Both the position numbers and the translations under genes were made by a program. DNA of 64,000 bases from Gamaleyavirus NAN33P5, in the sequence record OZ035750.1, one strand, 5' to 3'. The notes below the pieces were generated by a model. It was not told where the DNA came from. It searched no databases and saw only the letters and a list, made by a program, of their open reading frames with translations. Numbering within the stretch: position 1 is the stretch's first letter; the number at the start of each line of letters is the position of its first letter. Of the stretch, positions 24,093-24,284 are shown piece by piece.

Positions 24093-24216
24093 TGGTTACC
24101 AGTGAAGGATTCGAACCTCCGGTTGGAGTCTATAGCTTACCGCAGCAGCCCTCCAATCTAGCGGTGTCACACTTAGTCCAAACTTGAACATGTCAAGCCA
24201 TCTCGTGCAACTGGTA
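24093..24216 (-). ncRNA. 124-nt tRNA-like RNA (perfect acceptor, T arm, CCA; oversized body)
   Basis: 5' TACCAGT pairs perfectly with 3' ACTGGTA, then A-CCA; T arm GGAGG-TTCGAAT-CCTTC; about 48 nt longer than a standard tRNA, with internal TTGGAG/CTCCAA stem. Confidence 0.25.
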
Positions 24217-24218
24217 AA

Positions 24219-24284
24219 TGGTTCCGGCGTCTGGACTCGAACCAGAACACTCATGCCGTGCACGACACTAGTACCTACACCGGA
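24219..24284 (-). ncRNA. 66-nt minimal tRNA-like RNA (acceptor, T arm, CCA; D arm apparently missing)
   Basis: 5' TCCGGTG pairs with 3' CGCCGGA (one G-U), T arm TCTGG-TTCGAGT-CCAGA, discriminator A and CCA encoded; too short for canonical cloverleaf. Confidence 0.25.

Follow-up and report, generated by a model that had tools for sequence, protein, structure and literature searches.

Two adjacent elements on the minus strand of the 64,000-nucleotide (nt) stretch of DNA from Gamaleyavirus NAN33P5 that we analyzed (record OZ035750.1; this whole stretch is referred to as the window) specify RNAs that retain the top half of a transfer RNA (tRNA) and carry something else in place of its lower half. 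Element A (24219..24284) comprises 66 nt and element B (24093..24216) comprises 124 nt. Each RNA consists of a 7-base-pair (bp) acceptor on a 5-bp T stem, a UUCGA(A/G)U T loop and an A73-CCA end, and each family has a module of its own in the half that would hold the D and anticodon arms. In A, this module combines an invariant 9-nt connector with a short hairpin whose loop is GUGCAC; in B, it combines a D-like stem, which bears a variable hairpin, with a nearly invariant 59-nt core. Both elements are under purifying selection for structure. We are highly confident that A and B are real structured RNA genes, and the explanation that we favor, with considerably more reserve, is that they are conserved, non-decoding tRNA mimics matured by the tRNA pathway.

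Architecture of Elements A and B

A preliminary description of this DNA had reported a tandem pair of atypical tRNA-like RNAs, and both our reading of the minus strand and an independent scanner reproduced the coordinates of the two elements exactly. Read 5' to 3' on the minus strand, A begins with the 5' strand of the acceptor (24284..24278), from which the 9-nt connector UAGGUACUA (24277..24269) leads into the central hairpin (24268..24253), a 5-bp stem with the loop GUGCAC. A 6-nt connector (24252..24247), the T arm (24246..24230) and the 3' strand of the acceptor (24229..24223) follow, and the RNA ends with the discriminator A73 (24222) and CCA (24221..24219). The acceptor, UCCGGUG/CGCCGGA, forms 7 bp including one G.U pair, and the T arm reads UCUGG-UUCGAGU-CCAGA, with A-CCA at the end of the element. 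The acceptor, the T arm, the CCA and the body of 31 nt between acceptor and T arm that had been listed for A are all present, and the element has no D arm.

B is separated from A by a 2-nt spacer and is 48 nt longer than a tRNA of 76 nt. The 5' strand of its acceptor (24216..24210) precedes a D-like stem (columns 9-12/45-48; 24208..24205 with 24172..24169), an invariant helix of 4 bp around 32 nt that hold an extra, covarying hairpin (columns 18-36; 24199..24181). The 59-nt core (columns 38-96; 24179..24121) contains the helix UUGGAG/CUCCAA (columns 61-66/89-94; 24156..24151 with 24128..24123) and a possible pseudoknot, ACCGC/GCGGU (columns 52-56/74-78; 24165..24161 with 24143..24139). The UUGGAG/CUCCAA helix, of 6 bp and with a 22-nt loop, stands where the anticodon arm would be expected. 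The T arm (24120..24104), the 3' strand of the acceptor (24103..24097), A73 (24096) and CCA (24095..24093) complete the element. Its acceptor, UACCAGU/ACUGGUA, has seven Watson-Crick pairs; the T arm, GGAGG-UUCGAAU-CCUUC, contains one G.U pair, and A-CCA closes the element. Hence, the features that had been described for B at the DNA level, the acceptor TACCAGT/ACTGGTA, the T arm, the CCA, the TTGGAG/CTCCAA helix and the 48 extra nt, were recovered as well; the extra nucleotides are distributed over two regions.

The expectation that such an arrangement would hardly arise by chance was borne out. A scan for a T arm combined with a fully paired 7-bp acceptor and NCCA returned three loci in the window, with 0.12 expected from 60 dinucleotide-preserving shuffles of the window. 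These loci are A, B and an odd tRNA (23520..23445), all of them on the minus strand and within about 840 nt of each other.

Conservation and Covariation

The window derives from an N4-like coliphage of the genus Gamaleyavirus and matches such coliphages at 90-98% identity. The 211 nt that had been flagged for inspection are 100% identical in the Klebsiella phage vB_Kpl_K57alpha1.2, and a similarity search matched the segment with A and B in 68 phage records, 36 of which contain both elements. A, which is also found in Kaypoctavirus phages of Klebsiella, is the array element kept most widely, across three genera; in phage N4 it is identical at 66 of 66 positions, compared with 59-85% identity of the adjacent protein genes. 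For B, identity with the copy in Klebsiella phage KP8 amounts to 91%, and coding DNA, compared over 5.9 kb, reaches 70.6%. Covariance models of A (R1, 99 bits on the window copy) and B (R2, 159 bits) matched the two elements in Enquatrovirinae only; more distant Schitoviridae loci gave only ordinary tRNAs at the corresponding position.

The variants of A preserve its fold in every instance. Among nine unique variants, 100% of the cells of the 17 modeled pairs are paired (slid controls: 26-46%), and four of these pairs, located in the central stem and the T stem, are altered on both sides. The central stem occurs as UGUCG/CGGCA, UGUUG/CGACA, CGUCG/CGGCG and CGUU/AACG, and in KP8 the T stem GUUGG/CCAAC replaces UCUGG/CCAGA. 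The acceptor sequence is nearly invariant, and the connector and the GUGCAC loop are invariant across the three genera. An outer helix of A, UACU/AGUG, suggested by minimum free energy prediction was discarded, as the variants GAGCAU and GAAUGU each break one of its pairs. In phage VTCCBPA_322 the slot of A holds a relative of 128 nt (at about 1437-1564 of the locus, L011) with a fully re-paired acceptor (UCCAGGA/UCCUGGA), the retained connector GUGUAGGU, a similar hairpin and about 60 nt inserted into the D region. The tRNA frame consequently tolerates inserted modules.

For B we collected 14 unique variants, metagenomic ones included, and computed covariation on nine of them. Here, 99.7% of the cells of 34 modeled pairs are paired, and five pairs are altered on both sides: three in the acceptor and the others in the variable hairpin and the T stem. 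Three phages have UAUCAGU/ACUGAUA as the acceptor, and KP8 has UACUGGU/ACCAGUA. The 59-nt core carries three substitutions only among the 14 variants, all of them at columns that the model leaves unpaired (40, 59, and 67).

These data bear directly on the possibility that A and B are functionless, decaying tRNA pseudogenes or, as had also been considered in the preliminary description, fused tRNA remnants. The array of the window phage has indeed lost most of the canonical tRNAs of N4 and KP8, lacking the tRNAs for Asn, Ser, Thr, Pro and Gln that this locus holds in N4 and KP8, and the T-arm region of B resembles tRNA-Ser of N4 (about 92% identity over 24 nt). Decay would nevertheless have to be reconciled with conservation above that of neighboring protein-coding genes, with pairing of 99.7-100% accompanied by compensatory changes in every testable helix, and with the retention of A, more widely than any other array element, in three genera; we regard it as a very remote alternative.

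The Folded Strand and Its Coding Status

A and B lie in some 2.4 kb of DNA that contain no long open reading frames (ORFs; about 22,950-25,320), a tRNA region flanked by homologues of N4 gp47 and gp48. The array of which they are part is upstream of a strong intrinsic terminator, a 13-bp stem followed by a U tract, which closes it on the minus strand (23098..23129). The minus strand encodes not only the terminator but also the tRNAs and the genes on either side, and its transcript is therefore the relevant molecule. The helices themselves lead to the same strand: the G.U pairs of A (U6.G67 and G17.U33) and B (G9.U48, G18.U36, G19.U35, and G98.U112) would become C-A mismatches on the opposite strand, and the minus-strand RNA is consequently the one that folds.

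A protein-coding function of the segment was considered and rejected. A 72-amino-acid ORF that mechanically spans A and B is not conserved among relatives, since it is broken by a 1-nt indel in A of many phages and by the order B...A in KP8; the three ORFs that overlap A or B have no matches in PHROGs. In GenBank, Bas96 and other records carry short coding sequences over A, B and the leader described below (window 24093-24350), labeled as hypothetical proteins and in one case as a tail spike protein, which are probably artefacts of annotation. As an RNA, A is unannotated in the N4 record, which annotates none of its tRNAs in the array region, and appears elsewhere as 'tRNA-Undet' only; B is annotated nowhere. 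In the literature on N4-like phages we found tRNAscan listings ('tRNA-Undet/OTHER') only and no study of A or B.

Departures from the tRNA Fold

With canonical tRNAs (Rfam RF00005, including class II tRNA-Ser), A and B have in common the 7-bp acceptor, the discriminator, the 3' CCA, a T arm with a 5-bp stem and a 7-nt loop of the type UUCRANY, in which the stems of both elements covary, and, in addition, their position in the array and their spacing. A D arm with a 3-4-bp stem, an 8-11-nt loop and G18G19 is found in neither, and an anticodon arm with a 5-bp stem, a 7-nt loop and U33 is missing from the window copies of both; moreover, the loop of A varies in length. Covariance-model searches, proposed in the preliminary description as a check, gave nothing in Rfam for A, B or the leader at the gathering threshold or at a permissive one (tRNA, tRNA-Sec, tmRNA; E<=10), and no match to a group I intron on A or B at E<=10. 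ARAGORN with default settings calls neither element and reports only a tRNA-Ile(AAU) and a 'tRNA-???' in the window, in agreement with the Rfam result at gathering threshold. Since A has no D arm and a 6-nt loop in this phage, and B has no anticodon arm, the two are not decoding tRNAs.

In plan and size, A resembles metazoan mitochondrial tRNAs without a D arm, such as tRNA-Ser(AGY): an acceptor, a short connector where the D arm would be, a single central hairpin, a short variable region and a T arm, with about 63 nt before the CCA. It differs from them by its origin in a bacterial virus and by its 6-nt loop in the window phage. The 7-nt loop expected of a mitochondrial-type tRNA occurs in some variants of A only, and the armless mitochondrial mode of ARAGORN did not recover the boundaries of A. 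These variants matter for the question of whether A, B or both might be unusual but chargeable tRNAs that take part in decoding or supply amino acids to a non-ribosomal transferase. In phages IME11 and CU10EC and in Klebsiella phages, A presents a 7-nt loop GUGCACA on a 5-bp stem, formally a U33 followed by the anticodon GCA (Cys); acceptor, A73 and CCA are intact in both elements, the acceptor of A is nearly invariant, and annotations based on tRNAscan label A 'tRNA-Undet/OTHER'. Against aminoacylated tRNAs stand the 6-nt loop of A in both the window phage and N4, which can close to a UGCA tetraloop, the missing D arm of A and the missing anticodon arm of B, and the lack of any credible Rfam or ARAGORN call, the armless mode included. 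To our knowledge, tRNAs without a D arm work only with specialized mitochondrial translation factors, and we know of none of these in Escherichia coli. Taken together, we consider charging of A or B quite improbable.

Two further suggestions from the preliminary description, that B might be a true tRNA with an intron or insertion or an RNA related to transfer-messenger RNA (tmRNA), did not hold up. They draw on the 48 nt by which B exceeds tRNA length, on a frame in the core that reads GCU GCU GCG ... and on permuted tmRNAs that ARAGORN proposes at low thresholds. The intron mode of ARAGORN makes no call for B at its default threshold, and the call that it makes when relaxed (181 nt, 'Pro') is an artefact that takes its 5' strand from within A. 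An anticodon arm that could be interrupted is absent, and an excess of 48 nt falls well short of the length of a group I intron. As for tmRNA, both elements have C3-G70 instead of the G3.U70 pair, the putative tag frame passes through the T arm and the acceptor, ARAGORN reaches tmRNA calls only at meaningless thresholds, and the Rfam models for tmRNA and group I introns remain silent. We give these two readings next to no credence.

A Conserved Leader Travels With Element A

Directly 5' of A lies a conserved leader of 62 nt (24287..24348, minus strand) with two hairpins. P1, AGUC-CAGA-(CGAUA)-UCUG-(AGU)-GACU, is followed by an A-rich linker and then by P2, GCCAGG-UGGAAUC-CCUGGC. In the leader alignment, 98% of the cells are paired and four of 11 pairs are altered on both sides; the P2 stem occurs in the variants GCCAGG, GCCGG, GUAGG, GCAGG, GCAUG and GUCGG. 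A covariance model (R3) scores 81.9 bits on the window copy and detects a single copy per genome. An alternative pairing in the leader, ATCTG/CAGAT, is broken in 9NA, VLCpiS10a and Segz_1, and the covarying P1 was adopted in its stead; a role of the leader as a sigma-70 promoter was not supported by a promoter scan.

The leader is kept wherever A occurs and is absent along with A from PhAPEC7-type phages, which retain B; phages E20 and ST4 also lack A. As leader and A were lost together, the two form one unit. Without A, the leader is present in 103 phage records, including Salmonella phages 9NA and Segz_1, Shigella phage DS8 and several siphophages and temperate phages of Klebsiella, as well as in prophages of E. 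coli and in genomes of Kosakonia, Pantoea, Rahnella, Citrobacter and Leclercia. When A was compared by BLAST with 5,426 E. coli genomes, the leader alone was matched, in prophages. It is always placed in gaps free of ORFs, in either orientation relative to the neighboring genes, and it is unannotated. Outside N4-like phages, a helix of about 16 bp closes the domain that comes after the leader, and in three of 14 such loci a true tRNA is found farther downstream.

This distribution, with 85-91% identity of the leader in otherwise unrelated phages and prophages, could point to a DNA-level or mobile feature, so that the leader with A, and perhaps B, would act as single-stranded DNA hairpins or represent a recently spread cassette. 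The array adds to this impression, as its members are rearranged and variably present among related phages, KP8 having B before A. As a substitute for RNA function, however, we deem this decidedly improbable: the UUCGA(A/G)U T loops are RNA-specific, the CCA is encoded, the G.U pairs are specific to one strand, and the divergent copies in KP8 and VTCCBPA_322 keep their fold by compensatory changes, for which recent spread offers no explanation. A mobile element may at the same time function as an RNA. The description that fits the leader best is that of a 5' module in an autonomous small-RNA cassette.

The array holds three minus-strand copies of a hairpin motif, GGAGCCAG...CCUGG(C), at 24436, 24312 and 23556. 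One of them is P2 of the leader just before A, and another one is located about 35 nt before the odd tRNA that starts at 23520.

Predicted Maturation and Function

Recognition of a substrate by ribonuclease P (RNase P) depends on an acceptor/T minihelix of about 12 bp, a contact of the RCCA sequence with RNase P RNA, and a favorable nucleotide at position -1 (PMC11143913). By their sequence, A and B possess each of these determinants: a minihelix of 7+5 bp, A-CCA, and a U at -1 that is found in every variant of both. They should consequently be good substrates of RNase P, and excised, stable species can therefore be expected. RNase P resolves dimeric pre-tRNAs of phage T4 whose spacers are shorter than 5 nt (PMC11143913), an arrangement to which the 2-nt spacer between A and B corresponds; the elements of the array are packed 0-5 nt apart. 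Small phage RNAs that enter this route through tRNA-like determinants exist as well: the M3 RNA of phi80 and the C4 antisense RNA of P1/P7 are natural substrates matured by RNase P (PMC11143913). We compared M3 and C4 with A and B by description only; C4 acts as an antisense regulator, and its targets are known; for A and B, none were found.

By analogy to these cases, processing of A and B through the tRNA pathway is probable. In our model, a single array RNA with its end at the terminator (23129..23098) would contain the two elements and the neighboring tRNAs. RNase P would cleave A and B at their 5' sides, as it does in the tRNA dimers of T4, the 2-nt spacer between the two would be trimmed back to the CCA, and A and B would accumulate as stable RNAs of 66 and 124 nt.

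One might instead regard A and B as cis-acting punctuation, that is, as signals for cleavage by RNase P that set the termini of neighboring RNAs and are not products in their own right; A, for example, would create the 3' end of the leader RNA much as tRNAs punctuate mitochondrial transcripts. The leader is more widely distributed than A, what comes after it is in every case a closed structure (in N4-like phages A or its expanded relative, elsewhere the domain with the 16-bp helix), the elements are 0-5 nt apart, and leader and A are lost together, all of which accords with this proposal. What renders it unlikely is that a minihelix would suffice for such a task, yet the connector and GUGCAC loop of A are invariant in three genera, and the 59-nt core of B is nearly invariant in 14 variants while its stems drift. 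Furthermore, B persists where leader and A have been deleted.

We therefore return to the tRNA-mimic reading, which had been among the options of the preliminary description and which, together with the tandem arrangement, is the part of its interpretation that stands; the intron- or insertion-containing tRNA, the tmRNA-like RNA and the fused remnants fall away. Because A and B cannot read codons, we propose that they act in trans. The tRNA frame would ensure that they are processed and stable and would let them reach proteins that bind to the acceptor end of tRNAs. As decoys, with a body that blocks their use by the ribosome, the two RNAs might compete for a host enzyme directed at tRNAs or for a defense toxin; alternatively, the frame may be a natural scaffold that displays a module, such as the invariant core of B, to a partner. 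Since our searches brought up neither a target or partner nor an antisense match, this step of the model is tentative, and a role as trans-acting mimic or decoy is somewhat less probable in our estimate than a different one.

A bolder and quite speculative extension, to which we assign a slim chance, is that the leader with A, and B, belong to an unrecognized class of phage RNAs for counter-defense or host takeover that are carried on mobile cassettes. The tRNA top half might then act as a decoy for immune toxins or host enzymes whose point of attack is the acceptor end or the elbow of tRNAs, or else the core of B might be delivered to a specific host target; the shared leader with its two hairpins would be a common expression or processing module of these cassettes.

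Several observations weigh against the tRNA-mimic reading or limit it. A, B and the leader show no more antisense complementarity to other parts of the window than shuffled sequences do, the searches that we made revealed no partner or target of A or B, and a BLAST comparison of B with the 5,426 E. coli genomes gave no matches. Our literature search found no transcriptomic paper that covers the array, and we infer transcription and processing of A and B. Judged from the single sequence, the folding energy of A lies below that of shuffles (z = -2.2), and B is no more stable than shuffles (z = -0.2); single-sequence folding energy is thus not decisive, and support for the two elements comes from the comparative data. 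The helices in the core of B, with the D-like stem (columns 9-12/45-48) counted among them, are invariant even after the metagenome scan and are consequently neither supported nor contradicted by covariation. Two metagenomic variants of B (contigs L056 and L062) end in CUA, so that the encoded CCA of B is not absolutely conserved. Part of the identity of A with its counterpart in N4 may reflect recent exchange of the mobile cassette of leader and A and not selection alone. Finally, leader and A are missing from PhAPEC7-type phages, and B is missing from N4, so that neither element is essential.

Other Members of the Array

The minus strand carries further non-canonical tRNA-like RNAs, with which A and B form a longer array. 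The preliminary description had recognized the tandem pair; this longer array, the presence of A in N4 and the leader that travels with A were not part of it.

Element C (23975..24092) has a 16-bp terminal stem around a T-arm-like hairpin, GUGGGGUUCGAGUCCUCAC, and no CCA. Its fold is more stable than that of shuffled sequences (z = -3.8), and its T stem and terminal stem vary in a compensatory manner among five phages; in N4, the same slot (L004 1579-1690) is occupied by a different sequence with the architecture of element C. In its layout, element C is reminiscent of the module with tRNA-like features in bacterial Y RNAs (YrlA), and the Rfam YrlA model gives no match.

Element D (23885..23963) is a cloverleaf that ends in A-CCA and has an 8-nt anticodon loop, CUUCCACA. 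With an acceptor of 9 bp, a T stem of 4 bp and a D stem of 6 bp, its proportions resemble those of a selenocysteine tRNA, and it scores 34.9 bits with the Rfam model tRNA-Sec, below the gathering score of 47; Rfam also gives a weak match to Tymo_tRNA-like. At a lowered threshold, ARAGORN assigns it the 4-base anticodon ucca. Among the loci examined, element D is present only here and in Bas96, where the anticodon loop reads UUUCCCAA.

Element E (23818..23878) is a mini tRNA-like RNA of about 61 nt with the ends GGGGGUA.../CGCCCCU-A-CCA and the T-like arm CCAGA-UGAAACC-UCUGG; it is conserved in seven loci, with a 2-nt indel in the loop of its hairpin. A non-coding island at 23716-23813 is 91% identical to N4 (L004 1870-1968) in surroundings that have diverged, and it may be a further conserved RNA.

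The odd tRNA (23445..23520), ARAGORN's 'tRNA-???', has the acceptor UACCCGG/CCGGGUA, A-CCA and an abnormal anticodon arm, in which a 4-bp CUAG/CUAG stem carries the 8-nt loop UAAACGAG; ARAGORN gives its anticodon as (ac), and it reaches 42.5 bits with the Rfam tRNA model. The sole canonical tRNA in the array is tRNA-Ile(AAU) (23361..23439; called by ARAGORN, 62.4 bits in Rfam), and its anticodon is unusual. Outside the array, the window contains an ORF of 3,456 amino acids on the plus strand (11284-21654).

Known Systems and Biological Significance

The nearest counterparts of A and B are found in phage T4, whose RNAC (species 1, 139 nt) and RNAD (species 2, 119 nt) are encoded in a tRNA array on the strand of the tRNAs and are larger than these. 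In RNAC, a T arm, CCGGG-UUCGAAU-CCCGG, adjoins the 3' end and the termini are paired, a layout like that of A and B. On the basis of this setting and of the layout shared with RNAC, we class A and B with the tRNA-like stable RNAs of phage tRNA clusters. The two systems differ in several respects. There is no homology between A or B and rnaC or rnaD, the only shared stretch being an 11-nt match in the T loop; the terminal helix of rnaC is imperfect and the gene ends without CCA, whereas the acceptors of A and B are perfect and their CCA is encoded; and A is much smaller than the T4 RNAs and has no D arm. RNAC and RNAD are made as discrete, stable RNAs whose function is still unknown.

The joining of an acceptor/T-arm domain to modules that do not belong to a tRNA is likewise a property of tmRNA and of the tRNA-like structures at the 3' ends of viral genomes (tymovirus), to which the possible pseudoknot in B may be added as a likeness. 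A and B have no G3.U70 pair, no tag reading frame and no pseudoknotted acceptor. A parallel in terms of design is the tRNA scaffold of Ponchon and Dardel, in which a foreign RNA reportedly replaces the anticodon arm and is stably expressed in E. coli. B and the 128-nt relative of A in VTCCBPA_322 follow the same logic, in that a tRNA frame would lend its processing and stability to an inserted module; the scaffolds are artificial and keep the D arm, whereas the arrangement in B is natural and conserved.

Collectively, A and B extend the question posed by RNAC and RNAD of T4 to a second system that is genetically tractable and that offers natural presence/absence variants, PhAPEC7 lacking A and N4 lacking B. 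N4 is a classic model phage, and A is the most conserved element of its tRNA region. The leader adds a widespread, previously undescribed structured RNA to those of enterobacterial phages, and B and the relative of A in VTCCBPA_322 show that a natural tRNA frame can carry inserted modules. The non-decoding RNAs of this array are kept more faithfully than its real tRNAs, which argues for functions of phage tRNA islands that go beyond the supply of codon-reading tRNAs.

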